Origin: a bacterium
Lineage (GTDB): Bacteria > Patescibacteriota > Minisyncoccia > UBA6257 > GWB1-50-10
Direction of reading: 5' to 3'
DNA length: 64,000 nt
NCBI GenBank assembly: GCA_030647415.1
Contig: JAUSKB010000026.1
Span: forward strand, 10,894-74,893
The position numbers and the translations under genes are program-made. A model generated the notes under the pieces. It did not search any database. It was not told the origin of the DNA and saw only the letters and a list, made by a program, of their open reading frames with translations. This document shows, in pieces, positions 1 through 64,000 of this stretch (the stretch's first letter is position 1; every line of letters starts with the position of its first letter).

Positions 1-86
1 GTTCCATGGAATTGCGACTATGCTCGCGGGAATGAAAGGTCGACTAGAACCCATCTCAAAAAGAGGTCTCCCGAACAGCACACATA

Positions 87-2033
87 ATGAAACCAACAAC
101 ACCAGCAGAGAACGCCCGCCCTGCCAGCCCGCTTCGCCGAAACATCAGCCCAGCCTCGACTCGACGTCTCGGCGAGGCGGGCGAGGCAAGCCGGCTAGGC
201 AGGCGCGCCCCAAAACCGGCCCGTCAGGGCATCCGCGCCGCGGGCTCACGCGGCAATAAAGAGATTCGCCCGCCGGCCGCCCGCCAGCTCGTCCGACCGA
301 GTCATCCGGGCGGACCGGACGGACAGGTAGGCGTGCACCCCGGCCATCCGCCGGCGCCGCACAACCCCGACACACTCCGATGGATTGCCTTGGGGGGGCT
401 CGAGGAGATCGGGCGGAACATGATGCTCCTCGAGTACCGGGATGAGATTCTCGCCATCGACGCGGGACTTCTCTTCGCCGCGGGCGAGGAGACGCCGGGC
501 GTCGACTACATCATCCCGAACACCACCTACCTCGAGGAGCGCAAGAAAAATATCAAAGCGCTCATCATCACGCACGCGCACTACGACCATATCGGGGCTA
601 TCCCCCACGTCATGGATAAGATTGGGAACCCGCTCATCTACACCACAGAGCTCTCGAAGGAAATTATCATGAAGCGCCAGGGTGATTATCCAACGAGCGC
701 GAAGCCGCGATTCAACATCGTGAGGCCCGGCGAGACGCACCAGCTCGGGAAGTACTTTGCCATCACCTTGTTCGATGTGGTCCACAACATACCAGAGGGG
801 TTTGGTATGATCATCCGGACACCCATCGGGAACATCGTCCACCCGGGCGAGTTCAAGTTCGACTACGACCATGAGGGGAAGCCGAGGGGCTTGGACATCT
901 GGAAGCGGGTCGGCGAGGAGGGTATTCACACCCTCATGCTCGACTCGACCGGTGCGGAGGTACCGGGATATTCAGTGTCGGAGCGTGTCGTCGAGACAGA
1001 GCTTGAGAAGGTCTTCCGCGCCGCGCCGGGGAGAATCCTCGTCGGAACCTTCGCCTCGCTCCTCGACCGACTGGGTGAAATCGTGAAAATCGCGGAAAAA
1101 ATCGGCCGCCACGTGGCGGTCACCGGACGTTCCATGTCCACGAACCTCCAGATCGCCCAAAACCTCCACTACTTCAAATTCGAGAAGGGCACCATCATCC
1201 CCTTGGAGGAGATCGGAAAGTACCGCGACGAGAAGCTCCTCATCCTCTGCACGGGCGCGCAGGGCGAACCGAAGGGCGCGCTGATGCGCATCGCGACGGG
1301 CGAGCACCGGCAGCTCAAGGTGAGAACAACGGACACCATCGTGCTCTCCTCCTCGGCAATTCCGGGAAACGAGCGGAGCATCCAGAACCTGAAGGATGGG
1401 CTCGCCCGGCAGGGCGCCATGGTCTACCACAACAAGATGCTCGACATCCACTCGTCGGGTCACGCGCCACAGGAGGAGCTGAAGGAGGTCATGCGGCTCG
1501 TGAAGCCCCGGTTTTTCCTGCCTATCCACGGCTACTACTTCATGCGCTGGCGAAACGCCCGCCACGCGGAGGAGGCGCTCGGCATGAAGCCGGAACACAC
1601 CCTCCTCGCGGACAACGGCATCGTGGTGGAGTTCGGGAAGGACTTCGCCCGCGTGACGAACGAGGAGGTTCCCTCCTCCTACGTCATGGTGGACGGCCTG
1701 GGCGTGGGCGACGTGGGTGAGGTGGTCCTGCGGGACCGAAAAACGCTCGCCGAGGAGGGCATGCTCGTCATCATTGTGACCCTCACGAAGCGCGACGGGC
1801 GCATCCTGAAGAACCCCGACATCATCTCCCGTGGCTTCATCTACCTAAAGGACAACCACGAGCTCCTAGACGAGCTCCGCGCGAAGATTCGCGGCATCCT
1901 CTCGCGTATCCCGCGCCACCAGTCCGTGGACGCCGAGTACGCGAAGACCCTGATTCGCGACCAAATCGGCCAGTTCATCTTCACGAAAACGAAGCGTCGT
2001 CCTATGATCTTACCCGTCCTTATCGAAATCTAG
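87..2033 (+). CDS. rnj: Ribonuclease J (metallo-beta-lactamase / beta-CASP RNase). The catalytic core starts near aa ~95 (LGGLEEIGRNM). The true start may be the in-frame GTG at ~333, so the first ~80 aa of this ORF (Arg/Pro-rich) may not be translated.
   Basis: HAHYDHIG metal-binding motif is present. The ORF is near-collinear with B. subtilis RNase J1 through the C-terminal KTKRRPMILPVLIEI. The N-terminal LGGLEEIGRN box is present. Confidence 0.85.
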   Translation: MKPTTPAENARPASPLRRNISPASTRRLGEAGEASRLGRRAPKPARQGIRAAGSRGNKEIRPPAARQLVRPSHPGGPDGQVGVHPGHPPAPHNPDTLRWIALGGLEEIGRNMMLLEYRDEILAIDAGLLFAAGEETPGVDYIIPNTTYLEERKKNIKALIITHAHYDHIGAIPHVMDKIGNPLIYTTELSKEIIMKRQGDYPTSAKPRFNIVRPGETHQLGKYFAITLFDVVHNIPEGFGMIIRTPIGNIVHPGEFKFDYDHEGKPRGLDIWKRVGEEGIHTLMLDSTGAEVPGYSVSERVVETELEKVFRAAPGRILVGTFASLLDRLGEIVKIAEKIGRHVAVTGRSMSTNLQIAQNLHYFKFEKGTIIPLEEIGKYRDEKLLILCTGAQGEPKGALMRIATGEHRQLKVRTTDTIVLSSSAIPGNERSIQNLKDGLARQGAMVYHNKMLDIHSSGHAPQEELKEVMRLVKPRFFLPIHGYYFMRWRNARHAEEALGMKPEHTLLADNGIVVEFGKDFARVTNEEVPSSYVMVDGLGVGDVGEVVLRDRKTLAEEGMLVIIVTLTKRDGRILKNPDIISRGFIYLKDNHELLDELRAKIRGILSRIPRHQSVDAEYAKTLIRDQIGQFIFTKTKRRPMILPVLIEI

Positions 2034-2046
2034 GGTGGCTCCCGAA

Positions 2047-2074
2047 GTCCGACCCCGCCGTGGCGGGGTCGGAC
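2047..2074. repeat. GC hairpin gtccgaccccgcc-gtgg-cggggtcggac downstream of rnj. A second 15-bp-stem hairpin lies at 2101-2134 (ttgctaaaacccgct-catag-agcgggttttagcaa).
   Basis: Perfect inverted repeats read directly. The same 'accccgcc..ggcggggt' core recurs at 4403-4419 and 20083-20126. Confidence 0.6.
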
Positions 2075-2199
2075 TTCCAAATATTGGTCCTGCGCCGATT
2101 TTGCTAAAACCCGCTCATAGAGCGGGTTTTAGCAAAAAAATTGACAGAAAATAATTCTCGTGATAGAAAGAAGTTAGTCCACAAACAAAAAGGAGGAAG

Positions 2200-2691
2200 A
2201 TGTTTACTTTGACTGTGAAACATCCAGGCGTGCGCCCGGAAATCATCTCGGGTCTCTTTGATCCGCGGTATGGGTATATTCTCGACCTTCGCACCGGTAA
2301 TCGGAAGGAGGATGGAACGTTGGTCTTCATCCTCTCAATTGATGTGGTCGAGAAAGAGGGTGGGTGCATACTCGGAAGGTTCGAATTCGAGGAGATTGTA
2401 GAATTTTTCGGCGAAATGGGAGTTCGTGTTTCGGATGCTCTCTTCCACCCACGCCGAGATATACTGGACGCGATTGCCACAGAAATCGTAGAGAATCACT
2501 GGCTCTCCAAAAATCATGAAAGGCTTACTATCACGGCCCTCCCCACTGGAAAGGCTGGTGGGGTAAACTACGAAAGCGGCCTCAATATGACTCCAAATAG
2601 GCCCAACGAAAAACTCCAATACTTCCCTCTCGCCCCTCAAAAACCGGATTCCGTGGAAGATTTGGAGGGGGTTTTCGAAGACCCTGATTGA
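2200..2691 (+). CDS. Hypothetical protein, paralogue of the 3934..4353 product.
   Basis: RBS aaggagg lies 7 nt upstream. Shares a block (LVFILSIDVVEKEGGCILGRFEFEEIVEFF vs WKFVLSIEVFPDDHSKVLGEFEFEQLLEFP) with ORF 3934..4353. Confidence 0.6.
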   Translation: MFTLTVKHPGVRPEIISGLFDPRYGYILDLRTGNRKEDGTLVFILSIDVVEKEGGCILGRFEFEEIVEFFGEMGVRVSDALFHPRRDILDAIATEIVENHWLSKNHERLTITALPTGKAGGVNYESGLNMTPNRPNEKLQYFPLAPQKPDSVEDLEGVFEDPD

Positions 2692-4525: not shown

Positions 4526-5524
4526 ATGAAAATGATCTCAATGAATCCAGAAAAAAGCTCCGCTCGTAATCTCCCGAAGAGCGGCGAGTTAGATATCGAA
4601 CGGGCGCTCGAGCGGACGCGCCTCATGCCCGAAACAGCGCGTGTGACACTCGCAACGGTCCGTGAGTTCGTGCCTAAAGGTCCGGTAGCCACACTCGACT
4701 ACACGATCGCCGACAGCGCCGGCGTGCCGAGTGTTGAGCGGTGGAATCGCACGGAAGGGCGTGACGGAACCCTGCTCGGCTTCTCATACACTGATGGCGG
4801 CGAAACCATTTTAAACTTTGATCACCATAGTCGCGCGAGAGAGTTTGAGCGGCGCGTTTCAACCACAAACCTCGTTTCCCAGTTCCTCCGCGAGGGAAAT
4901 GTGGTCGAGGGCGTGCCGCTCATTCACCACACTGATTGTGACAGCGTGCTCGCGAGCCTCCTCGCAAGCGGCGGCGCGGAATCAAATGAGCTATTCGACA
5001 ACGCGGCGATTGCGGCAGATCACACGGGCGCGCGGAATGAAATTGCAGACCTCCTCCAGGCACTTGGACCATTCCGCGACTACACGCGGTCACTGTACGC
5101 CCTCAATGCACTCCTCCACGGAGAGCAACTCGATGGTGAAACAAGAGCACGTGTCGAAAAACGGCAGCGCGATCGTGCGCAGGTAGCTGCGCTCCCGTTC
5201 GAGACGTTTGCTCACCGCGTAGTACTTGCCCACATCAAGGACCGTGTCGACGGGGAGCTTGCTCCGGCGGCGTTCCCCCGCGCAGCTGTAATCCTTCTCG
5301 CCAGACCAATGCCTGACGTTTCAAACCGATGGGAAATAAAGGTGCGTGCGGGACTTGCCTTCCCCGAAGGGCGCTCGCTCCACGAGCTATCGCTTGATGC
5401 ATACGGCGGAAGATGGAACGCGGGGAGCACAAAACGCAGCGGAGGTACAGCGCTCACCCCAGAGCACTACGCGGAGCTCGTGAGCCGGCAAATCGAAGAA
5501 GTATTCGGGAATCAGCGGGCATAG
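4526..5524 (+). CDS. Hypothetical protein (~332 aa). The start was moved to MKMISMN, downstream of the terminator.
   Basis: The long ORF 4310..5524 spans a terminator hairpin, so I took the first ATG after it. No confident family assignment. Confidence 0.5.
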   Translation: MKMISMNPEKSSARNLPKSGELDIERALERTRLMPETARVTLATVREFVPKGPVATLDYTIADSAGVPSVERWNRTEGRDGTLLGFSYTDGGETILNFDHHSRAREFERRVSTTNLVSQFLREGNVVEGVPLIHHTDCDSVLASLLASGGAESNELFDNAAIAADHTGARNEIADLLQALGPFRDYTRSLYALNALLHGEQLDGETRARVEKRQRDRAQVAALPFETFAHRVVLAHIKDRVDGELAPAAFPRAAVILLARPMPDVSNRWEIKVRAGLAFPEGRSLHELSLDAYGGRWNAGSTKRSGGTALTPEHYAELVSRQIEEVFGNQRA

Positions 5525-6609: not shown

Positions 6610-7392
6610 ATGCCCTCTACAAAACCACTTGAGGGAGTTGGGCTTTCCGAACGACAGGCACGAGTATACCTCGGCACGCTTGAACTCGGACGTGGCACCG
6701 TTCAGGAAATAGCAGTGAAGTGCGGCGAAAAACGGGTAACGACGCATGTGATTCTTATAGAGCTCGAGTCAAAGGGACTCGTTCGGTTTATAAAATCCGG
6801 GAAACATCGGATTGTCGAAACAACCCCCCCGGAGTCACTCCTTGCACTCATTCGCGACCAGGAGCGCCTGCTCCGCGTCCGTGAGGAAACACTGCGTAAA
6901 ACGCTTCCGGAGCTCTCGATGGTCTATAATCTTGCGCACGCGAGTCCGACCGTGAAATTCTATGAAGGTCCGGAGGGCATCCGCGCACTCCGCGAAGAAG
7001 CGCTTCGTGCAAGCAGTAAGGTGAAGCGCGTAGTGGGATTTGTATCAATCGACAAGCTTTTCGCGGCATTCGGTAAGGGCGAGCAGGAATTTTCGTTGGA
7101 GCGCGTACAACGCGGTATCCGTTCCCGAGTCATCTACACCACGAAAAGCGGTCCGCGACCTGACGCGACAAGCCCAAAGCTCCTCCGCGAAGCGAGGTTT
7201 GTCCCGCCGGAAAAGTTCCCATTCCAGAGCGACATATCCATCTACGGCGACAAGGTTTCCTTTGTGGCGCTCACCGGGAACTTGAATGGGGTCATGATCA
7301 CCAGCAAGAGTATCGCAGATACCATGCTCGCTATCTTTGAACTCGCCTGGATCCAGGCGGAAAAAACCGACCGGGCGGCACGCGGTGAGTAA
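6610..7392 (+). CDS. TrmB-family transcriptional regulator.
   Basis: N-terminal wHTH (LSERQARVYLGTLELGRGTVQEIA) and overall length and architecture match TrmB-like regulators. Confidence 0.65.
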   Translation: MPSTKPLEGVGLSERQARVYLGTLELGRGTVQEIAVKCGEKRVTTHVILIELESKGLVRFIKSGKHRIVETTPPESLLALIRDQERLLRVREETLRKTLPELSMVYNLAHASPTVKFYEGPEGIRALREEALRASSKVKRVVGFVSIDKLFAAFGKGEQEFSLERVQRGIRSRVIYTTKSGPRPDATSPKLLREARFVPPEKFPFQSDISIYGDKVSFVALTGNLNGVMITSKSIADTMLAIFELAWIQAEKTDRAARGE

Positions 7393-7407
7393 TTCTGCCA
7401 CTGGGGC

Positions 7408-7436
7408 TTGACAAAAAATTATATAGGAGCTATAAT
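7408..7436 (+). promoter_or_regulatory. Perfect sigma70 consensus promoter: TTGACA, 17 nt, TATAAT.
   Basis: Read directly. No ORF lies downstream. Confidence 0.6.
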
Positions 7437-7442
7437 TGCGCC

Positions 7443-7800
7443 AGAATTATTAATTCACCGTTTCATCCACCCATCGGAGACCGACGTATGGGATGGTAGA
7501 CCTTAAGCCACAGCCTCGTCGCAGGTGTATACGCATGCATCGCATGCATGTCCACCTGCCGTCGAGGAGGGGCATAAATAAAGATTTTCGGTCTAACCAC
7601 TTACTACCAAGAAAGGAGATTTAGTTATGTTCTGGTAGTCTGCGGCGTTTATTAGATGTTGGAACCGGGCGTCGAGCCGCGACGCGAAAAGGTTCCTATG
7701 GATTACCTCTAATAATATGATGTGTGTTTCTCACTCATAGATATAGAGGGGTGTACATATTCTGGAGCGATGACGCAAGTCGTCGCTCCTTTTTTATTTA
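7443..7800 (+). ncRNA. Candidate ~350-nt sRNA of unknown class, between a consensus promoter and a strong terminator.
   Basis: Terminator hairpin ggagcgatgac-gcaa-gtcgtcgctcc followed by TTTTTTATTT at ~7766-7800. Internal palindromes include gcatgcatcgcatgcatg. A hairpin (ctaccaagaa...ttctggtag) sequesters an SD plus ATG-TTC-TGG-TAG mini-ORF. Confidence 0.4.
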
Positions 7801-7913
7801 CAATCAGTATTTTTGACTAATATACTGTTAAAATAATATAACTTTATTGTTACTACATATGATTAAATTAGATATATGATGGTTTATATAGGTATAATAA
7901 GAGTTATATGCTA

Positions 7914-7942
7914 TTGACAAATAAAACAAGCGGGTGTATACT
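7914..7942 (+). promoter_or_regulatory. Sigma70-like promoter: TTGACA, 17 nt, TATACT.
   Basis: Read directly. Lies upstream of the RNase P RNA candidate. Confidence 0.55.
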
Positions 7943-7954
7943 GTCACCAGAAAC

Positions 7955-8470
7955 TTGAGATTTGGACAAGTACATAGGAATTTCAGGGGAAGGGTTCCCC
8001 CTCCCAGTCTTAATACCGAGGGGCCTTCCCCTGAAATTCCTATGCGCCAAGCCATACCGAGACGAAAGTCCACGGGTATAAGACTAAGACGCAGAGGAGC
8101 TATGCGGCAGCCACTTCTTCATTCGTTCCATCCCTTACAAGAAACGAATGAGGAGGTGCTCTTGGGGTAACTGGGGACTTTTTCCCCATCATGCTTTCTG
8201 GGTGATATGGATAACCTAGTTGGCAAATACCACAAGTGAGATCGTCAAGTGATGTCGTCTTGACGACCAGCCGCGAGGGTTTGCTGGCTCGTACAGCCAG
8301 CGAGAGCGCTTTTTCCTACAGAGGCATTTCTGCAACTGCACTAAATTTGCATCAAGGTGCACGGCAGTATGACTTTTGCAAGGGTTTCCCGCTCGTTCCA
8401 AGTAATGCGCAGTTTTGGTCATTACAGAAAATGACCTACTGAAGCAGAGCGGTTCCGATCGGCCGACTGG
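7955..8470 (+). ncRNA. rnpB: RNase P RNA candidate with an unusually long P3-like hairpin (22-bp perfect stem at ~7971-8042).
   Basis: Landmarks occur in the correct order: CGAAAGUCCACGGG (P4 5' strand, ~8062), GGGGUAACUGGGG (~8170), GGGUGAUAUGG (~8200), UUACAGAAAAUGACC (P4 3' strand, ~8424). The P4 strands are ~360 nt apart. No ORFs. A hairpin follows at 8475-8495. Confidence 0.55.
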
Positions 8471-8557
8471 AACGCAGCGCGGGTCGAACCCGCGCTAGGA
8501 CGAACCACGCCAGGTGCGTGGAGAAACATACAGTTTGTGGGGTGATTGGAAAAAACC

Positions 8558-8618
8558 AATCGCCCCTACACTCGAGGTCATCACATGGTGTGGTGCACTC
8601 GACGGTAGGAAAGTGAAC
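8558..8618 (+). promoter_or_regulatory. Conserved ~55-nt structured leader motif, copy 1 (cccctacactcgag-GTCATCAC..GGTG-cactcgacggtagg), ~35 nt upstream of the 8651 ATG.
   Basis: Three copies lie at 8558, 9438 and 10031. The outer stems cctac/gtagg and tcgag/ctcga are conserved. The inner hairpin shows covariation (cacaTGGtgtg vs cacggAGACGccgtg). Confidence 0.5.
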
Positions 8619-8650
8619 ATTCACAAACTAATGGCTAGGAGAGTAACACT

Positions 8651-8917
8651 ATGTGCACACGACGTATGAACGGCAACACCGGCTGCTACATGCACCTCTC
8701 GAAAATCCGCATCTATCCTCCCTGCACGGCCCACCAGATGCCACTGGTCCCGCCCGTCCACTCGCAAGCCGAACTTCGAGAGCAAATCGCCGAAGGGCGC
8801 CGCCGTGCCGAGGAACAGACCGCACGTCTCCGCAAGAAAGGCATCCTGCCACACGCCAGCCCACCAGTTCATCAAAAGGTTTCGGAGCTTCCTTCTATAA
8901 AAGCTCTCCATACCTGA
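8651..8917 (+). CDS. Hypothetical small protein (88 aa) with a Cys-rich N-terminus.
   Basis: RBS aggaga 8 nt upstream. Preceded by leader motif copy 1. Confidence 0.45.
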   Translation: MCTRRMNGNTGCYMHLSKIRIYPPCTAHQMPLVPPVHSQAELREQIAEGRRRAEEQTARLRKKGILPHASPPVHQKVSELPSIKALHT

Positions 8918-8982
8918 GGCCACGAGAAACGCTCGTAGCTTCAGCAATGGAAAATTCATAACTTAATATGGGAGGAATTAGT

Positions 8983-9405
8983 ATGGGAACAATCATTCAT
9001 CCTTGCGAAGTACCCGGATGCCCAATCAAAGGCGAGGCTTCAAAGATGTTCAATCTGAAAAAGCTGCCGGGAAAGCCGCTCGTCGTCGTCTGCGCGAAGC
9101 ATGCACGGATGGCGCGGAAAGAGGGTGTAAAGGCATACAACCTTCAGAGCACCTTCGAGTACGAGGCGGAACGGGTCAAGGAGCGAGAGGGGGCCGCGGC
9201 GTTCATTCGGGCGCACAGCCGGACGAACGGCCGCGGGTACGGAATGCGGGAGCTGGCGAAAATCAACGGAAACGGCAACAAACAACGAAAGGAAGTGCGC
9301 GATGAGAAAGTTCCCATTACGAATCCCCCTCTCCAAGAAACCGGGGAGGGCGCAGGGAATGAAGCGGGGAGCGAAGGGGTACGACCGCACGCGCTCGCGG
9401 CGTGA
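8983..9405 (+). CDS. Hypothetical protein with a putative zinc ribbon (CEVPGC...C..H).
   Basis: RBS gggagg then ATG at 8983. The upstream in-frame ATG at 8968 lacks an RBS. Confidence 0.5.
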   Translation: MGTIIHPCEVPGCPIKGEASKMFNLKKLPGKPLVVVCAKHARMARKEGVKAYNLQSTFEYEAERVKEREGAAAFIRAHSRTNGRGYGMRELAKINGNGNKQRKEVRDEKVPITNPPLQETGEGAGNEAGSEGVRPHALAA

Positions 9406-9437
9406 GGTTCGAAAAGAAGTGCGGGGCGATGGCTAGC

Positions 9438-9500
9438 ATTGCCCCTACACTCGAGGTCATCACGGAGACGCCGTGGTGGGCTCGACGGTAGAAAATAGAA
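9438..9500 (+). promoter_or_regulatory. Structured leader motif, copy 2.
   Basis: gcccctacactcgaggtcatcacggagacgccgtggtgggctcgacggtagaaaat. Followed by RBS aaggag and the ATG at 9522. Confidence 0.5.
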
Positions 9501-9521
9501 CTTTTATAAAAGGAGTTTCAT

Positions 9522-10004
9522 ATGCGACAGAAACAGAAGGAGTACTTACGTACACTCGGATTTCCAACGAGCGGCGGAAAGGATGAGCTCATCGACCCCG
9601 CGGATGGCACCATCAATGCAGATGTCGTCGCAAAACGCATCTTCAAGTTCGCGCGCGGCAAGCGGATTATGGTCGCGTTCCACGAAGAGGCAAGCGGACC
9701 ACTCACGGTGATCGAGGGAAGGCTAGACTGTATCGCAAACATCTTCGGGAGTCATCTGGAGCTTACACAGGTGAAGCTGCTCCAGGGAGATATAGCAACA
9801 CTCGACCGTATACACTACCAGCGGGCGGGGGAACGCCAAAAATTCCTCTTCTGCTGCGCCGACTTCGCGAGGAGACATGACCCATCGAAGGATGATTTGC
9901 TTGTGGTGGACATCTCAACCATCTCGCACATCAACATGGACGGCGAGCGTATATACGCGTGCGTCCCGGTTGGTGACAGGTGCGTGCTCCGATTCGGGAG
10001 GTAG
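9522..10004 (+). CDS. Hypothetical protein (160 aa).
   Basis: RBS aaggag. Preceded by leader motif copy 2. Confidence 0.5.
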   Translation: MRQKQKEYLRTLGFPTSGGKDELIDPADGTINADVVAKRIFKFARGKRIMVAFHEEASGPLTVIEGRLDCIANIFGSHLELTQVKLLQGDIATLDRIHYQRAGERQKFLFCCADFARRHDPSKDDLLVVDISTISHINMDGERIYACVPVGDRCVLRFGR

Positions 10005-10030
10005 GTACCTGGAGCAATCGCGAACAGCGC

Positions 10031-10095
10031 GATTGCTCCTACACTCGAGGTCATCACGGAGACGCCGTGGTGGGCTCGATGGTAGAAAATGAACC
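10031..10095 (+). promoter_or_regulatory. Structured leader motif, copy 3.
   Basis: gctcctacactcgaggtcatcacggagacgccgtggtgggctcgatggtagaaaat. Followed by RBS gaggag and the ATG at 10120. Confidence 0.5.
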
Positions 10096-10119
10096 TTACA
10101 AATAAAAACAGAGGAGCAT

Positions 10120-10728
10120 ATGGCGTCGTGTGATCGATGTAAACGGACGTATGAGGATATTTACGAGGGTTGTACCGGAAATCAGGGATGGGGATGTGCA
10201 GCGTCTGCTGTAAAGCGGGACGGGAACATCTACGTCAGCGCTGGGTACGGATCAAAGTTCGACCTTTGCCTAATCAAAGTGGTCGGAGAAGAGGGAGTGG
10301 GAGTTTCAGTTGGCATGGAGATCTGCGACGCGTGCATCGAGAAGTTTATCAAGGAGGGGGTGGCAATCCACGACCATGCGTTCTGTGATCGCGTCCTCGA
10401 GGAACGTTGGCGAGCAGGCGAGCACAGCCCCACAGAGGAGATTGACCCGTTCACGGCAGCATGTGGAGGCATCACGAACGTCACTCCAATCGTCTGCCCG
10501 ACGTGCGGCAAAGACGGGGTGTGGCGGGACTGCAGGTTCTGCTGGTGCTGCGGAGCGCCGAACGTGTGGTTCGACGAGGGGGAATTTCCGGAGTCACCGG
10601 AGGCGCGGGCAGACTGCAAAGCTGGGCACCCGTGCATCAAAGAGGATGCCGCGGATGATCCCGAGGTCAGGCGTATGTACGCAGAGCGTCCGTTCTGCCT
10701 CGACTGCGGGAAGAGAATTTTCGAATAG
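10120..10728 (+). CDS. Cys-rich hypothetical protein (202 aa) with multiple CxxC pairs (zinc-ribbon-like).
   Basis: CDRC, CDAC, CPTCG, CRFCWCCG and CLDCG pairs are read from the translation. RBS and leader copy 3 lie upstream. Confidence 0.55.
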   Translation: MASCDRCKRTYEDIYEGCTGNQGWGCAASAVKRDGNIYVSAGYGSKFDLCLIKVVGEEGVGVSVGMEICDACIEKFIKEGVAIHDHAFCDRVLEERWRAGEHSPTEEIDPFTAACGGITNVTPIVCPTCGKDGVWRDCRFCWCCGAPNVWFDEGEFPESPEARADCKAGHPCIKEDAADDPEVRRMYAERPFCLDCGKRIFE

Positions 10729-10730
10729 CA

Positions 10731-10762
10731 AACCCCCGACCATCGGTCGGGGGTTACTCTGT
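10731..10762. terminator. Bidirectional terminator hairpin cccccgacc-atc-ggtcggggg between convergent genes.
   Basis: Perfect 9-bp GC stem. It overlaps the stop of the minus-strand ORF 10754..11065. Confidence 0.6.
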
Positions 10763-11065
10763 TCGAGCGTCCATTCGTGCGGCGCGAGCTGCCCTTGGTG
10801 AGAAGAATTCGCCAGTGAACTCCTTCGCACCCGCGCGCTTGAACGCGCGCGATTGCCACAAAATCTGCACAGATAATGATTCCCCGCGGAGTTCCGTGAG
10901 TTCATTCTCAAAACATTCAGCGCCGTACGACCTACCCCGGCGCGGCTTCGTAAGAACGAGAAAGCGCCGTTTCCCCGCTGGATCGCGATGTCGCTCTCCG
11001 AACTCCGCCCCGCGTTTTCTACCAAACGCCATTGTGCGCACCTGCGCCTCCGTCATTTTTTTCAT
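10754..11065 (-). CDS. Hypothetical basic protein (103 aa).
   Basis: Strong RBS (aaggagg) 4 nt before the ATG on the minus strand. Arg/Lys-rich. Confidence 0.5.
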   Translation of the reverse strand: MKKMTEAQVRTMAFGRKRGAEFGERHRDPAGKRRFLVLTKPRRGRSYGAECFENELTELRGESLSVQILWQSRAFKRAGAKEFTGEFFSPRAARAARMDARTE

Positions 11066-11132
11066 ACAACCTCCTTAATATTCTGCATATGGTTGTAGCA
11101 CCAAACGACTCTGGTGGCAAGTACTACCGTTT

Positions 11133-14100
11133 CTATTTTGCGAGCCACAGACGGACCGGCATACCATCGAGCGTTGTTGCCGCCTCCGCGTCGAAGCGCC
11201 TCGGGACGCCGAACGTGAGCGCGGACGCCCGGACCTCGCGGCACACCAGCTTGGTGTCACGTGTAAGGATGAACCGGAGCTCCTCCGGCACCTCGACCGC
11301 GAGCGCGATCGGGTCCCGCGGCGAGAGCTTCGCGTCCTGCCGGAGCTCCTGAACCGCGCGGACGAACTCGCGGCGCCACCCCTCCTCTTTGAGTTCGTGC
11401 GTGATGACGGTGTCGAGCACCACCGGCTCCGAGATATTCGGATCAAAGACAATCTCCTTCACATTGACCTCATCCTTGAGGAGTTCGAGAAGTTCTGCTT
11501 TCCCCTGCAGTGTCCGGCCTTTCGCCGTTAGGCGAGATAATACCTGCCGGACCTTTATACCCGCCGTGGAACGAGCGGCGAGCCCCGCGCTCGCGAGCCG
11601 CCGCACCTCCGCCATGTCGGTGATGAGCTGTTTGTTGTCCCTCGGCTTCGCTCGGGCCGTTCGAGGCTCTGAGGAGCCCTCAGGCTCTCGAAGAGATGGT
11701 GAGCTTGTCGAACCATTTGTTGTTTGTCGTTTGTTTGCTGTCGGCCAGTCGGCAAGGTGCACCGAACGGTCAGCCTTCCCGGACACGAGCGATCGGTAGA
11801 GCGCCTCGGCGAAGAATGGGGTGAAGGGGGCGAGGAGCCGCGCAGTCGTCACGAGCGCGTACCCGAGGACCGCGGACGCTTCCTGGTGGTCAAGATCAGA
11901 GTCGGGATGCTGGAGCCGGCGGCGTGAACGCCGTATGAACCACCGTGAGAGGTCGCCCACGAACTCACCTACGACCCGCGCGGCGCCGCCGGGGTCGTAC
12001 GCCTCGAGCGCTCCGGTCGCCGCGGCAATCGTCTCGTCGAGCCGCGCGAGCACCCACCGGTCGAGCACATGTGTCGCTTTTGGTTGCTTGTTTGTTGTCC
12101 CTCGCTTCTGCTCGGGATGAACCATTTGTTTGTTTGTTTGTTGTCGGTTATTCCCATACGTCGCGAAGAACACAAACGAGTTGTAGAGGATACCGAACAG
12201 CTCCCGGCTCGCCGTCGCGAGGTCCCGTTCGTCGAACCGCTTCGGCTCCCCCGGCGGGTTCACGATAAAGAAGTACCAGCGGATGGCGTCCATACCGTGG
12301 GCATCGGCCGCGACCCAGGGGTCCACGGTGTTCCCCTTCGACTTCGACATCTTCTGCCCGTTCTTGTCGAGCACGTGACCCATCGAGATGACGTTCTTGA
12401 ATGGGGCCTTCTTGCCGAGGAGGGTCGCGACGGCGAGGAGGGTGTAGAACCAGCCCCGCGTCTGGTCTATGGCCTCCGAGATGTAATCCGCCGGGTAGGG
12501 TAGTTTCTGTATACTCGTCTCTTGTCTCTTGTCTCTGACCCGTTGTTGGTTGTCAGTCGTAGGTTGTCGGTTACCAAACGGGTAGTGCGCCTGCGCAAAC
12601 GGCATCGCACCGGAGTCGAACCAGACGTCTACTACGTCCGGGATGCGATGCATTGTCCCGTCCCGCTTGGCGGGATCTCGCGAAGCTCGACACTTCGCGC
12701 AGGGGTAGGTCACCTCGTCGATGTACGGTCGGTGAAGGTCGAGTTCTCCAAATCGGTTCCGCGGAAGCGGGATGGGTTCCACCTCACGCGCCTTGCCTTT
12801 CATCGGGTACGAGCCGGAGTCTGCAGCTTCCTGAGCCTCCGTATTCGTCCATCCATGCATCGCCGCCTCAAGCATCCAAAGTGGGTCGCCATGACTTACC
12901 ACCACGATGGTCTTGTTCTGGTGCATTCTATCCACTTCCGTAATGAAATCGTACATCCGGCGGCGGACGTCATTGCGCGACTCCCCGCCCTCCGGCGCCA
13001 CCGCGAATCCATCGGGGGCATTCTTACAAAGGAGGACGTGTTCATCCGCAGACCTGCCGTTCAGAATGCCACAACGAAGTTCCTGCAATCGCTCATCGGT
13101 TATAACCTTCGTAATCCCCGCCGCTGTAGCGATGAGCGTTGCAGTCTCTTGGGTGCGCTGTAGGGGCGAGGCGTAGACAGCATCGACACCCTCTTTCGCC
13201 AGCTTCAGAGCGGTTGCCTCTACATCGGACCGGCCTTTCAGGGTCAAATGGTAGCCTTTCTGTATCGGCAAGCAATCCAATAGTCGTTCAAGGTTGCTCT
13301 CCGCCTCGCCGTGCCGCACGAGGATATACCGGTTCGTTGATTTCGGAAGCTTCGCCGAAACCTCCGCGATGCTTCCCAACACCTCCGTGTGCGCGCACTG
13401 CTCGCACCGCCAGACCGGGAGCGGCGTCCCCCAGTACCGCGCGCGGGAAATTGCCCAGTCCTTCACCTCGCGGAGCCACTCGCCGAACCGGCCGTCCTTT
13501 AGATGCGCCGGCACCCAGTTGATTGTCTGGTTCGCCGCAATGAGCTTCTCGCGGAGCGAACTCATCCGGATGAACCAGGAGGTGCGGGCGTAGTAGATGA
13601 GCGGCGTCGAACAGCGCCAGCAGAACGGGTACTCGTGCGCGATGGTCTCGCGCTTCAGGAGCGAGCCCTGCTTTTCGAGCGCGGCGATGATTGCCTCCGT
13701 CGTCTCCTTTTCAATAACGGGGTCCTTGTGTTTCACCGTCCGTCCCGCGAACTCCGCCACATCCTTCGTGAACCGGGCCTGCTCGTCCACCGTATGGTGC
13801 TGGGGGAGCCCCACCTTCACGCCGAGCTGGTAGTCATCCTCGCCATACATAACCGCGGTGTGGACCACGCCCGTGCCGTCCGTCGTCGTCACGAACCCCG
13901 CCGGATAGACCTGGTACGCCGCCTCTGTCTGGAGCGGCTTCACATCGAAGAGCGGGTGATATCGCAAACCTTCAAGATAACTTCCTATAAAAGTCGAAAG
14001 CACTTTGTGGTAGGGGTTATCCTTGAACTTATGCTGAACCAGATTCGGATTAGCGCTTGGAACTCCGGGCATAGTCCATCGTTCATGAATCTCTTGAGCT

Positions 14101-14897
14101 AATATGACTTTCTCCTTCCCATTCTCGTGTTCGGCGATTACGTACTCAACAGCAGGTTTGACTGCGAGCGCTACGTTCCCCGGGAGTGTCCAGGGCGTCG
14201 TGGTCCACGAGAGGATGTAGGTCCGGTCGTCAGTTGTGAAGTTCCCGATTTTCTGGCCCTTTTCCAGTTTGAATTTCACATACACCGACTCATCATTCAC
14301 CTCCTTATATCCCTGCGCGAGCTCATGGGTGGAAAGCACCGTGCCGCACCGCGGGCACCACGGGACTACCTTGCGGCCCTCGAAGAGGAGCTTCTTGCGG
14401 TGAATCTCCTTCAGGATCCACCAGAGCGACTCCATGTATGTCGCGTCGTAGGTGACGTACGGGTGTTCCATGTCGAGCCAGAAACCCATCCGCTCGGTGA
14501 GCCGCTCCCACTCGTCCTTGTACTTCCACACCGAGGTGCGGCACGCCTCATTGAACTTCTCCACGCCGTACGTCTCGATGTCCCGCTTGGACTTCAAACC
14601 AAGCTGCTTCTCCACCTCGAGCTCCACGGGGAGACCGTGCGTGTCCCACCCGCCCTTCCGGGGCACGCGGAACCCCCGCATCGTCTTGTACCGGCAAATG
14701 ACGTCCTTGAAGGAGCGTGCGATGACATGGTGGATGCCGGGCCGGGCATTCGCGGTCGGTGGTCCCTCGTAGAACACGAAGGTCTTCTTCGCCGGGCGCT
14801 GGGCGATGGATTTCTGGAAAATCCCGTTCAGTTTCCAAAACTTGAGGACCTCCTCCTCGATCTTCGGGAGTGAGAACGACTCGAGATGCTTCAGCAT
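11133..14897 (-). CDS. ileS: Isoleucyl-tRNA synthetase carrying an embedded histidine-phosphatase (PGAM-like) domain and three low-complexity Q/T/N-rich insertions.
   Basis: The N-terminus MLKHLESFSLPKIEEEVLKFW and the KMSKS motif are collinear with IleRS. Residues ~555-745 (nt ~12776-13346) carry the RHG motif (YILVRHGEAESN) and a second His motif (VVVSHGDPLWML). The likely start is M38 of the track ORF (TTG/ATG, ~14897); the ORF extends to 15008. Confidence 0.88.
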   Translation of the reverse strand: MLKHLESFSLPKIEEEVLKFWKLNGIFQKSIAQRPAKKTFVFYEGPPTANARPGIHHVIARSFKDVICRYKTMRGFRVPRKGGWDTHGLPVELEVEKQLGLKSKRDIETYGVEKFNEACRTSVWKYKDEWERLTERMGFWLDMEHPYVTYDATYMESLWWILKEIHRKKLLFEGRKVVPWCPRCGTVLSTHELAQGYKEVNDESVYVKFKLEKGQKIGNFTTDDRTYILSWTTTPWTLPGNVALAVKPAVEYVIAEHENGKEKVILAQEIHERWTMPGVPSANPNLVQHKFKDNPYHKVLSTFIGSYLEGLRYHPLFDVKPLQTEAAYQVYPAGFVTTTDGTGVVHTAVMYGEDDYQLGVKVGLPQHHTVDEQARFTKDVAEFAGRTVKHKDPVIEKETTEAIIAALEKQGSLLKRETIAHEYPFCWRCSTPLIYYARTSWFIRMSSLREKLIAANQTINWVPAHLKDGRFGEWLREVKDWAISRARYWGTPLPVWRCEQCAHTEVLGSIAEVSAKLPKSTNRYILVRHGEAESNLERLLDCLPIQKGYHLTLKGRSDVEATALKLAKEGVDAVYASPLQRTQETATLIATAAGITKVITDERLQELRCGILNGRSADEHVLLCKNAPDGFAVAPEGGESRNDVRRRMYDFITEVDRMHQNKTIVVVSHGDPLWMLEAAMHGWTNTEAQEAADSGSYPMKGKAREVEPIPLPRNRFGELDLHRPYIDEVTYPCAKCRASRDPAKRDGTMHRIPDVVDVWFDSGAMPFAQAHYPFGNRQPTTDNQQRVRDKRQETSIQKLPYPADYISEAIDQTRGWFYTLLAVATLLGKKAPFKNVISMGHVLDKNGQKMSKSKGNTVDPWVAADAHGMDAIRWYFFIVNPPGEPKRFDERDLATASRELFGILYNSFVFFATYGNNRQQTNKQMVHPEQKRGTTNKQPKATHVLDRWVLARLDETIAAATGALEAYDPGGAARVVGEFVGDLSRWFIRRSRRRLQHPDSDLDHQEASAVLGYALVTTARLLAPFTPFFAEALYRSLVSGKADRSVHLADWPTANKRQTTNGSTSSPSLREPEGSSEPRTARAKPRDNKQLITDMAEVRRLASAGLAARSTAGIKVRQVLSRLTAKGRTLQGKAELLELLKDEVNVKEIVFDPNISEPVVLDTVITHELKEEGWRREFVRAVQELRQDAKLSPRDPIALAVEVPEELRFILTRDTKLVCREVRASALTFGVPRRFDAEAATTLDGMPVRLWLAK

Positions 14898-15029
14898 GAT
14901 GTATAGATATTCTACCGAAAGAATGTACCGAGAGCCACTGTGGCGGGCTAGCGCTTGACGCGCGATATAAAAAGTTGTAATAAGAGTACAGACGGATTTT
15001 CCCAACAAACCACAATATAAGGAGGGCGT

Positions 15030-63160: not shown

Positions 63161-63190
63161 GATTCCATTTTCTCGTATAGGACGGCAGTC
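63161..63190. promoter_or_regulatory. Palindromic box tctcgtataggacggcagtcctatacgaga.
   Basis: 30-bp near-perfect palindrome between the PaaX-like gene 2 stop and the next gene's start. Confidence 0.5.
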
Positions 63191-63258
63191 CTATACGAGA
63201 AAAAAGATTGAAAGAGATGAGTAGATTGTAAACCTAAATCAATCTTCGGTTCCCCCTC

Positions 63259-63894
63259 CTATCGCGTCCGGTCCCTGAGCGTCCCCTCCCTCCCCACCTC
63301 GAAGATCTCCAGATGATGCAGTACGCCGAGCTCGCGGGCATCCTTCAGGAACTGGTCCGGCAGGGGCTTAGTGCCCAGCCACATGCTCTGGTGGACCTTG
63401 CGGTACCCGTGGTTTATGAGCACCTCACGGACCCAGGCGCGCTTCCACCGCTCGCGCTCGGGGATGTCATAGGAGACGATAGTGATGACGGTGCGCCCGG
63501 GCTCCGGTGCGTACGAGTGGGGGTTTGGAGTTAAAGTGACCGTGCGTCGCTCGCGCTCGCGAATCCCTCGAATACTGAGCTTGAACCGCGCGGCCTCGCC
63601 GCGCTCGCGCTTCTCGACCAGGCCTTCCTGAATGAGTCGGGAAATTGTCCGTAGATACTGTAGACGCGACTTGAGACGCGCTTCGCGAGCCGCGACGCGC
63701 TCGCGATATTTCTGATCCAGTTTCGCGACCGCGCGACCATACCCGGGACGCGGAGTGTACCGCTTCCCGCCGGGTGCGCCCGCGGGCGTCGGCTGGGAGA
63801 GGACGTCCCAAAGCTCCTCGGCAACCCACTCCGCATGGGTGAGTGTAATGAGTACTCGCGTCCTTAGGGAATCCCGAATTCCTCCATGCGCCAT
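63259..63894 (-). CDS. PaaX-family transcriptional regulator (paralogue 2).
   Basis: VITIVSYDIPERERWKRAWVREVL...YRKVHQSMWLG. About 60% identical to paralogue 1 over the C-terminal 120 aa. Confidence 0.6.
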   Translation of the reverse strand: MAHGGIRDSLRTRVLITLTHAEWVAEELWDVLSQPTPAGAPGGKRYTPRPGYGRAVAKLDQKYRERVAAREARLKSRLQYLRTISRLIQEGLVEKRERGEAARFKLSIRGIRERERRTVTLTPNPHSYAPEPGRTVITIVSYDIPERERWKRAWVREVLINHGYRKVHQSMWLGTKPLPDQFLKDARELGVLHHLEIFEVGREGTLRDRTR

Positions 63895-63900
63895 AGGTTC

Positions 63901-63938
63901 ATTTTACCACATAGGACGGCCGTCCTATGTGGTAAAAT
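63901..63938. promoter_or_regulatory. Perfect 38-bp palindromic box attttaccacataggacggccgtcctatgtggtaaaat upstream of PaaX-like gene 2.
   Basis: Read directly. Lies 7 nt upstream of the start codon. Confidence 0.55.
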
Positions 63939-64000
63939 GGATATGATAAAGTGCTGTCCACGCTATACCGTGAACTGCACCAACCGGAGACGTTCTACAC

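Follow-up and report, generated by a model that had tools for sequence, protein, structure and literature searches.

What is the role of a structured element that recurs before one small gene after another? The question is raised by an island of four small open reading frames (ORFs) in a 64,000-nucleotide stretch of the chromosome of an uncultured, Patescibacteria-like bacterium (contig JAUSKB010000026.1, positions 10,894 to 74,893; hereafter the window, with its own numbering). A preliminary description had noticed three copies of a hairpin motif before three of these ORFs and had proposed a cis-regulatory RNA, an RNA processing site or an operator. We find that the motif belongs to a larger module standing before every cistron of the island, and that this module acts in cis as a structured RNA, formed by the sense strand of a single polycistronic mRNA. 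There is about an even chance that its role is to process and stabilise the mRNA between cistrons and to insulate each ribosome-binding site, a reading drawn from its anatomy and from analogy. The alternatives are, in decreasing order of probability, the binding site of an RNA-binding regulator, a recombination site acting as single-stranded DNA, a new ribozyme, an operator in double-stranded DNA and a neutral repeat.

The three-copy repeat is real: the window contains exactly three occurrences of the 20-mer CCTACACTCGAGGTCATCAC, at 8565, 9444 and 10038 and on the plus strand only, while the chance expectation is 0 matches even with up to 3 mismatches, and a repeat finder recovers the identical three copies (families D6-D8). 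Each copy folds as the long hairpin that had been described, with -27 to -28.5 kcal/mol and z-scores of -3.5 to -4.5. Some details of the preliminary description need correction. The outer helix, given there as an invariant cctac/gtagg, ends in GTAGG in copy 1 only; copies 2 and 3 have GTAGA and a helix of 4 bp. The reported covariation of the inner helix is actually a length difference of 4 nucleotides at the hairpin tip with the pairing kept, and 0 of 16 aligned pairs of the long hairpin vary among the three copies. The distance from the base of the hairpin to the ATG is 41, 30 and 34 nucleotides in copies 1, 2 and 3, rather than 35-45 nucleotides to the ribosome-binding site and start codon. 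Changes at the hairpin tip are weak evidence for a structured RNA; the real evidence lies in a second hairpin, in a fourth copy and in other genomes.

Both the second hairpin and the fourth copy are additions to the preliminary description. Abutting the 5' side of every copy is a GC-rich hairpin, here called hairpin A (the long hairpin is hairpin B), and a diverged copy, M1b, precedes a 140-amino-acid (aa) ORF; all four small ORFs of the cluster are preceded by a module. M1b came to light in the covariance-model (CM) search that had been suggested as a check: the model built from the three copies (R1) matches at 8866-8985, between ORF1 and ORF2, with 26.8 bits (E 8e-5), and it went on to find copies in other genomes. 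A model built from all ten copies (R2) gives M1b 73.4 bits. Its long hairpin (B') folds as UCCAU-AC-CUGAGG-CC-ACGAG-AAACG-CUCGU-AG-CUUCAG-CA-AUGGA (-23.7 kcal/mol, z-score -6.3), an architecture the same as that of the other copies. With filters off, the CM search of the whole window found no copy beyond the four, and R2, which scores the ten copies with 73-112 bits, found nothing besides these across 83 kb.

The order within a module is hairpin A, hairpin B, an A/U-rich single-stranded tail of 20-35 nucleotides that often contains UUCACAA, a Shine-Dalgarno (SD) sequence and the ATG of the next cistron; in the window, SD and ATG lie 30-41 nucleotides 3' of hairpin B. Hairpin B comprises about 20 bp-equivalents in helices of 4, 5 and 6-8 bp, separated by two small internal loops. 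All four modules are on the plus strand. M1 consists of hairpin A at 8539-8566 (GGGGTGATTGG / CCAATCGCCCC), with compensatory arms in the ten-copy alignment, and hairpin B at 8565-8609 (copy 1); its A/U-rich tail contains UUCACAA and leads to the SD. In M1b, hairpin A' (8885-8906, GAGCTT / AAGCTC) is read from the sequence and conserved in the two other genomes described below, and hairpin B' (8907-8951) is supported by CM matches and by its independent fold. M2 has hairpin A at 9423-9445 (GGGGCGAT / ATTGCCCC), again with compensatory arms, and hairpin B at 9445-9491 (copy 2); M3 has hairpin A at 10011-10039 (GGAGCAATCGCG / CGCGATTGCTCC) and hairpin B at 10039-10085 (copy 3). The hairpins B of M1, M2 and M3 are each defined by both repeat and fold.

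Outside the window, the CM found four modules in a 16-kb metagenomic contig (L008) and two in a short metagenomic contig (L009), each before a gene. MAFFT on trimmed copies misaligned hairpin A and was set aside in favour of a longer alignment (A1). Covariation was assessed at 26 pairs in the resulting ten copies from three genomes, in an alignment derived from the CM. The structural covariation looked for in this larger alignment is strong: standard pairing is present in 94.7% of cells, compared with 35-52% when the partners are slid by 1-3 columns, both sides have changed at 16 of the 26 pairs, and the covariation score of 0.400 (shuffles: 0.211 +/- 0.021) is reached by 0 of 500 shuffles. 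The arms of hairpin A, for example, differ among copies by compensatory changes such as GGGG/CCCC versus GGAG/CUCC. RNAalifold, with no structure supplied, returned the identical two hairpins, no closing helix and no junction. A closing helix that would give a three-way junction (AGUUUGUG/CACAAACU) can be drawn for copy 1 only and was rejected, as neither the other copies nor RNAalifold support it. Invariant positions are mostly paired (C70-G117, A72-U115, G78-C108, A79-U107 and G80); the only invariant unpaired ones are A74 and G81, to which a loose GAAA tail can be added. The apical loop is A(A/G)AC(G/A) in seven of the ten copies, with other short tips in M1 of the window and M2 of L009.

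The alignment also tells which strand folds. There are 13 cells with G.U and 3 with A.C, the latter all in the poorly aligned inner helix of diverged copies; therefore the pairing works on the sense (plus) strand and not on its complement. The CAUCAC/GUGGUG helix likewise holds a U.G pair that is possible on the plus strand only. Orthologous hairpins B of the window and L008 have an identity of 76-80%, compared with 37% at the third codon positions of the TrmB-like gene and 55% at those of ORF2; the module is therefore under purifying selection.

A double-stranded DNA operator or promoter element, for example for the adjacent TrmB-like regulator, with the palindrome reflecting a dimeric protein, is highly improbable in the light of these data. 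The idea can draw on the TrmB-family gene just upstream in the window, in L008 and in one distant locus (L016), and on the palindromic motif: CATCAC-N5-GTGGTG in copy 1 resembles TATCAC-N5-GTGATA, the site of archaeal TrmB proteins. However, the CATCAC/GTGGTG element is missing from M1b-type copies, and the conserved half-sites GAG and CUC are either 21 or 25 nucleotides apart, even within one genome. In addition, the helices change by compensatory substitution (16 of 26 pairs), G.U pairs, which in DNA are palindrome mismatches, prevail by 13 to 3 on one strand only, and the copies share no sigma-70-like hexamers at a usable distance. Of the three options of the preliminary description, a structured RNA on the sense strand is thus borne out by covariation in ten copies from three genomes and by the wobble bias, while the operator is disfavoured by spacing and compensatory changes.

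Transcription signals agree with an RNA that is part of a longer message. The probable operon promoter (TTGACA-17-TATACT, 7914-7942, plus strand) matches 11 of 12 consensus positions and its L008 counterpart (5099-5127) all 12, and a terminator-like hairpin, read from the sequence, closes the operon at 10733-10753 on the plus strand (CCCCCGACC / GGTCGGGGG), homologous to the L008 terminator at 8800-8826. A sigma-70-like promoter scan found none comparable between the 7914-7942 promoter and ORF4, nor inside the L008 island. The plus-strand terminator scan listed no module, although canonical terminators were detected nearby: hairpin A is followed by hairpin B and hairpin B by an A-rich tail, and because no U-run follows either, the modules are not intrinsic terminators. 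With a promoter upstream, none inside and a terminator at the end, the modules therefore lie inside one polycistronic transcript. No promoter-like site was found in or beside any module.

The same confinement to one operon bears on a selfish or neutral repeat of the repetitive extragenic palindrome (REP) or miniature inverted-repeat transposable element (MITE) type, spread locally and without function for the genes. Such a repeat would be palindromic, recurrent and intergenic and would show signs of gene conversion, as the module does, and still the explanation has very little probability. The copies found by the CM with filters off in the 64 kb of the window and the 16 kb of L008 are inside the operon only and all in one orientation (plus strand), in the window 30-41 nucleotides before a start codon, a distribution that is not REP-like, MITE-like or that of a bacterial interspersed mosaic element; positional orthologues are conserved above the level of synonymous sites across genomes; and no copies were found in the public collections scanned. 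Exact and degenerate DNA patterns gave 0 matches in viral contigs (three patterns) and 0 in GTDB species genomes, and blastn of the island against phage records gave no match. Two sets of candidates were rejected: four pattern matches in JGI metagenomes are inside coding regions (a membrane protein, an Lrp-like regulator), have no outer helix and were judged to be chance matches, and an 18.7-bit CM match in L007, the locus of the one relative of the TrmB-like protein found in GTDB genomes (29% identity), is an ordinary terminator plus an AT-rich region.

How the genes of the island change around the modules can be seen from L008, which carries one ORF2 homologue and is syntenic with the window: in both, RNase J and trpS are followed in order by the TrmB-like gene, a non-coding stretch of about 1 kb, the island of small genes, a conserved gene on the minus strand (109 aa in L008) and ileS. 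Modules M1b, M2 and M3 are positional orthologues between the genomes and even the loops of their hairpins A match (GGCUAGC in the window and GGGUAGC in L008 for M2, GAACAGC in both for M3). ORF1 and ORF2 are conserved too. The genes behind M2 and M3 are unrelated (160 and 202 aa in the window; 179-193 and 186 aa for the L008 genes), and L008 carries an additional 93-aa gene behind M1. Copies within one genome have genome-specific pairs in common (CUAC/GUAG in the window, CCAC/GUGG in L008 and L009), window M2 and window M3 are 98% identical, and L008 M1 is a mosaic with an outer helix of the M2/M3 type and a middle helix of the M1b type. These features point to recombination among the repeats, which would also explain the swapped cargo genes.

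Such turnover brings to mind integrons, and the module could be a recombination site at the DNA level, with hairpins of single-stranded DNA at which a recombinase inserts and excises cassettes. The window and L008 have M2 and M3 in common and unrelated genes behind them, L008 M1 is a mosaic of two module types and the genes are all small, co-oriented and promoterless behind one strong promoter; integron attC sites are likewise imperfect palindromes that separate small promoterless genes, which all point the same way behind one promoter and vary in identity. We nevertheless consider this quite unlikely. Unlike attC, the module has CYAC...GTRG ends and symmetric loops only, no R and L boxes (RYYYAAC/GTTRRRY) and no extrahelical bases, and it precedes every gene, the first one too, with no copy behind the last, which is the reverse of attC placement. 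No integrase or recombinase gene is present in the annotated gene list of the 16-kb L008 or among the inspected window ORFs beside the island. Homology across genomes spans the whole module up to the SD with no fixed internal breakpoint, and ordinary homologous recombination between the repeats suffices for the turnover.

The view that the module matches no known RNA class holds. Rfam 15 in gathering mode reported only a tmRNA and one tRNA in the whole window, and at E <= 10 no match overlapped any module, neither in the window (7300-11200) nor in L008 or L009. There was no hammerhead match in the window region, while the same search detects hammerheads in two distant loci, and for the twister, twister-sister, pistol, hatchet, hepatitis delta virus (HDV)-like and hairpin ribozymes we found no Rfam match and no apparent covarying long-range pairing.

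These two loci are among seven that carry distant ORF2-family relatives (L010-L016); L012 is a contig of only 583 bp and the flanks of its ORF2-family gene were not part of the comparison. In three of the seven, the slots equivalent to that of the module are taken by hammerheads (two loci, L011 and L016) or by another repeated hairpin pair (one locus, L015). In L011, each gene that follows the ORF2-like gene has in front of it a type III hammerhead with complete core (642-696 and 1291-1345; 47.1 and 38.5 bits), and a tyrosine recombinase gene is nearby (1614-2552, minus strand). In L016, a TrmB-like gene and about 860 nucleotides of non-coding DNA precede the ORF2-like gene, and the leader of the latter contains a GC hairpin, a type III hammerhead (1763-1817; 33.1 bits, E 2e-4), a long hairpin and SD-ATG, which is the layout of the slot in L011 too. 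Hammerheads with similar flanking hairpins at the same slot mean that the slot of hairpins A and B is filled by self-cleaving ribozymes in other lineages. L015 has three copies of a different two-hairpin repeat (535-625, ~1370-1445 and ~2010-2105): one directly before a gene, one further upstream of another gene and the third, at the contig end, ahead of a short ORF not called as a gene. Related repeated hairpin elements precede genes in L014 (~55-235, ~700-900) and occur in L013 (~1473-1560, ~1946-2030), where both copies are part of the long leader, and L010 has one related element (~440-530) upstream of a short ORF that was likewise not called. None of the repeated elements of L010, L013, L014 and L015 has an Rfam match. 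One recurrent form of the repeat among them is CCUCCCC-ACCAAAA, an AU-rich hairpin and UUUUGGCGGGG.

Multiple hammerheads that flank genes of varying identity near integrases have been reported, cleave in vitro and were read as a means of polycistronic RNA processing (Perreault et al. 2011, PMC3088659). These tandem hammerheads of prophage-like regions (PMC3088659) share with the module that several copies flank single small genes of inconstant identity, in one orientation and on a long transcript, and the hammerheads of L011 and L016 occupy this very slot, with a GC hairpin on one side and a long hairpin on the other. The window module differs by the absence of the CUGAUGA...GAAA...UH core and of a three-way junction, and has no match to an Rfam ribozyme at E <= 10. 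It might be argued that it is a self-cleaving ribozyme of an undescribed class that replaces the hammerhead of the related islands, given the equivalence of the slot, the conserved fold with small internal loops, the recurrent apical loop and the absence of any matching Rfam family. This is very doubtful: conserved unpaired nucleotides are very few, there is no junction or pseudoknot and no closing helix by RNAalifold, the apical loop is dispensable (the tips of window M1 and L009 M2 differ) and the 3' sides of the internal loops vary freely.

Between a processing site and a regulatory leader, the hammerheads in equivalent slots of distantly related islands lend indirect support, by analogy, to processing. 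As modelled, hairpin B also has the structure of an RNase III-type site, namely a duplex of about two turns with internal loops between co-transcribed ORFs. An endonuclease would cut the long transcript, either RNase III at hairpin B or a single-strand-specific enzyme beside the hairpins; hairpin A would cap the 3' end of the upstream message and hairpin B the 5' end of the downstream message, and the unstructured tail would keep each ribosome-binding site independent of the gene in the slot. The modules, as direct repeats, could double as homology arms for the exchange of slot genes. RNase III processing hairpins lie between the cistrons of phage early mRNAs, such as R0.3-R1.3 of T7 and the sites of Bacillus subtilis phage SP82. 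They too are repeated, similar hairpins of about 20 bp with internal loops between small genes of one transcript, and in both cases hairpin halves would stay as protective ends after cutting. In contrast to these sites, the module adds an abutting hairpin A and a conserved A/U-rich tail, is part of a bacterial chromosome island with no recognisable phage genes and is conserved in sequence beyond the needs of a generic RNase III substrate, and processing is here proposed from structure.

Several points weigh against processing and stabilisation as the function. What the data show is the structure with its conservation and strand, its place ahead of each cistron, the gene turnover and, from the promoter and terminator scans, the single transcription unit; cleavage, stabilisation and the enzyme are what we infer from structure and analogy. 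The mostly paired invariant positions suit a sequence-specific binding partner as well as a nuclease. The protein shared with the loci behind the hammerhead analogy has only 26-36% identity, and the window module has no ribozyme core. The motif is present in three genomes only, and the shuffle statistics overstate independence because the copies are related by descent or gene conversion and because the CM-derived alignment leans towards the structure of the model.

A sequence-specific partner would have hairpin B as the binding site of a trans-acting RNA-binding regulator that co-ordinates translation or stability of all cistrons, like a phage translational repressor on its operator hairpins. 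The invariant pairs of the lower stem together with A74 and G81 imply sequence-specific recognition rather than a generic duplex, and the island encodes conserved small basic or zinc-finger proteins as possible partners (ORF1, ORF2 and a 103-aa ORF on the minus strand). The genome-specific pairs (CUAC/GUAG; CCAC/GUGG) would fit co-evolution with one partner, but gene conversion among the repeats explains them equally well. The SD and ATG, 30-41 nucleotides 3' of the hairpin, are outside it, which makes simple occlusion unlikely, and ORF2-family genes elsewhere are accompanied by quite different repeats or by hammerheads, so that ORF2 is not tied to hairpin B. Altogether, we regard such a regulator as fairly unlikely. 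A comparable arrangement is known from the start-associated sequences (SAS) and extended SAS of Cluster K mycobacteriophages, which have an inverted repeat and a presumed function in translation or at the mRNA level. Both they and the module combine conserved sequence with an inverted repeat, placed shortly before the start codon in a subset of genes; they differ in sequence, and SAS include the ribosome-binding site, whereas the SD of the module is outside the conserved hairpins.

Another known arrangement is that of the PeSL cassettes of T4-like phages, which consist of an early promoter and a stem-loop (PMC2839356, PMC4122927). They resemble the module in that conserved, repeated stem-loop motifs bracket small orphan ORFs in a hypervariable region, and that related genomes keep the motifs and differ in the ORFs, consistent with shuffling by recombination between the repeats (PMC2839356, PMC4122927). 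Of the two parts of a PeSL, the module has the stem-loop with variable flanking ORFs and no detectable promoter; its structure and sequence are unrelated, and it resides not in a phage but in a Patescibacteria-like chromosome. Elements of this kind, repeated hairpins between cistrons or regulatory cassettes, are thus already known from the T7 and SP82 sites, the tandem hammerheads and the T4 PeSLs, while this module matches no described RNA family. Our literature searches gave no description of it; the only one directed at RNA elements of this type in Patescibacteria yielded no papers.

The proteins of the island gave nothing above threshold with Pfam, PHROGs and PADLOC. ORF1 (8651-8917, plus strand; 88 aa, Cys/His-rich), whose 3' end overlaps hairpin A' of M1b, has a homologue in L008 (5863-6081) with 53% aa identity, and third codon positions are the least conserved between the two. 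ORF2 (8983-9405, plus strand; 140 aa), its start set by a GGGAGG SD and the CM alignment, is the conserved core gene with an N-terminal C..C...C..H zinc-finger-like domain; its homologues P0005 and P0006 are 62% identical. A profile search extends the ORF2 family to 31 representatives, all small proteins with an N-terminal C-x4-C...MWNL...VVVCGxHA domain. The family has no Pfam match, no PDB match with family profiles and was not found in IMG/VR, and an AlphaFold model of ORF2 from three sequences is too poor for a fold search (predicted local distance difference test (pLDDT) 49).

The two remaining genes occupy variable slots. ORF3 (9522-10004, plus strand; 160 aa) is an orphan: in a database of 5.8 billion proteins it matches itself only, and the same slot in L008 holds no homologue. 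ORF4 (10120-10728, plus strand; 202 aa) is Cys-rich, with five or six CxxC pairs by our count instead of the about seven first given, has no homologue in L008 and matches only itself and P0002, a partial relative that is 60% identical to its C-terminal half and comes from another context with no module. This Cys-rich half exists as a stand-alone 113-aa gene in another genome (L002, 1301-1642), directly after an RNase J gene, where a sigma-70 promoter of its own precedes it and a module is absent; ORF4 would therefore seem to be a two-domain fusion.

The leader of the operon, of about 600 nucleotides, is opened by a long, near-perfect hairpin of about 30 bp (7973-8044, plus strand), which is read from the sequence, near-identical in L008 and changed in a compensatory manner in its lower stem between the two; in Rfam it has only spurious, miRNA-like matches below threshold. 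In L011 and L016 a long hairpin likewise directly follows a TTGACA...TATACT promoter. The window leader has an extra hairpin-rich segment of about 300 nucleotides (~8260-8530) that is absent from L008. An RNase P-like reading of GAAAGUCC at ~8063 was dropped, as the element is not kept in L008 and has no Rfam match.

Further upstream, a TrmB-family gene precedes a non-coding leader and an ORF2-family gene in three loci (window 6610-7392, L008 3780-4553, L016 185-943), and this gene order suggests that regulator and island are functionally connected. A separate small transcription unit (window 7408-7799, L008 4573-4968) directly follows trpS and the TrmB-like gene, with a perfect TTGACA-17-TATAAT promoter, a strong terminator (7764-7799) and no Rfam match. 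It contains a conserved strong SD and then a 3-codon ORF, ATG-NNN-TGG-TAG, which reads MFW* in the window (7622-7633) and MGW* in L008; a Trp codon in a mini-ORF beside trpS suggests a Trp-sensing leader or a small RNA. On the other side, between island and ileS, is the gene of a basic 103-aa protein on the minus strand (10754-11065); the L008 protein (8828-9157; 109 aa) is 45% identical, and there is no family match. In the isoleucyl-tRNA synthetase encoded by ileS (window 11133-15008, minus strand; L008 9222-12833), the precomputed Pfam list for the L008 orthologue shows an inserted histidine-phosphatase domain (His_Phos_1), and the window ORF has the matching stretch. The window contains a second family of repeats, 41-nucleotide palindromes such as ATTATACCATAATGGACGGCCGTCTATTACGGTATATT at 52519-52559, 53240-53280, 63167-63207 and 63901-63941, which are paired about 720-735 nucleotides apart; each pair brackets one copy of a 264-nucleotide segment (52598-52861 and 63265-63528) that is duplicated at 77% identity.

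In a wider reading, which we put forward tentatively and think unlikely on balance, the islands would represent an undescribed platform for gene capture and expression in Patescibacteria-like genomes. It would consist of a strong promoter, a long leader hairpin, a zinc-finger protein, an adjoining TrmB-like regulator and slots opened by lineage-specific RNA modules (hairpins A and B, hammerheads or the other two-hairpin repeat), each of which would both process RNA and serve gene swapping, similar to an integron without an integrase. A further possibility is that hairpins A and B are themselves a new class of self-cleaving or nuclease-guiding RNA.

The locus shows with unusual clarity how a structured RNA can recur ahead of each cistron in an operon, its covariation real and its conservation above the synonymous level, and it links subjects that are mostly treated separately: intercistronic RNA processing, tandem hammerheads in bacterial islands and the rapid turnover of orphan genes. 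It also draws attention to an uncharacterised zinc-finger family of 31 cluster representatives, whose genes, in the seven contexts examined, are either surrounded by repeated structured RNAs or placed shortly after long leaders rich in hairpins. If the processing role is true, the modules would illustrate how, in nature, insulators made of hairpins or ribozymes allow any captured gene to be expressed, and would offer an entry point to gene regulation in Patescibacteria, which is experimentally almost unknown.

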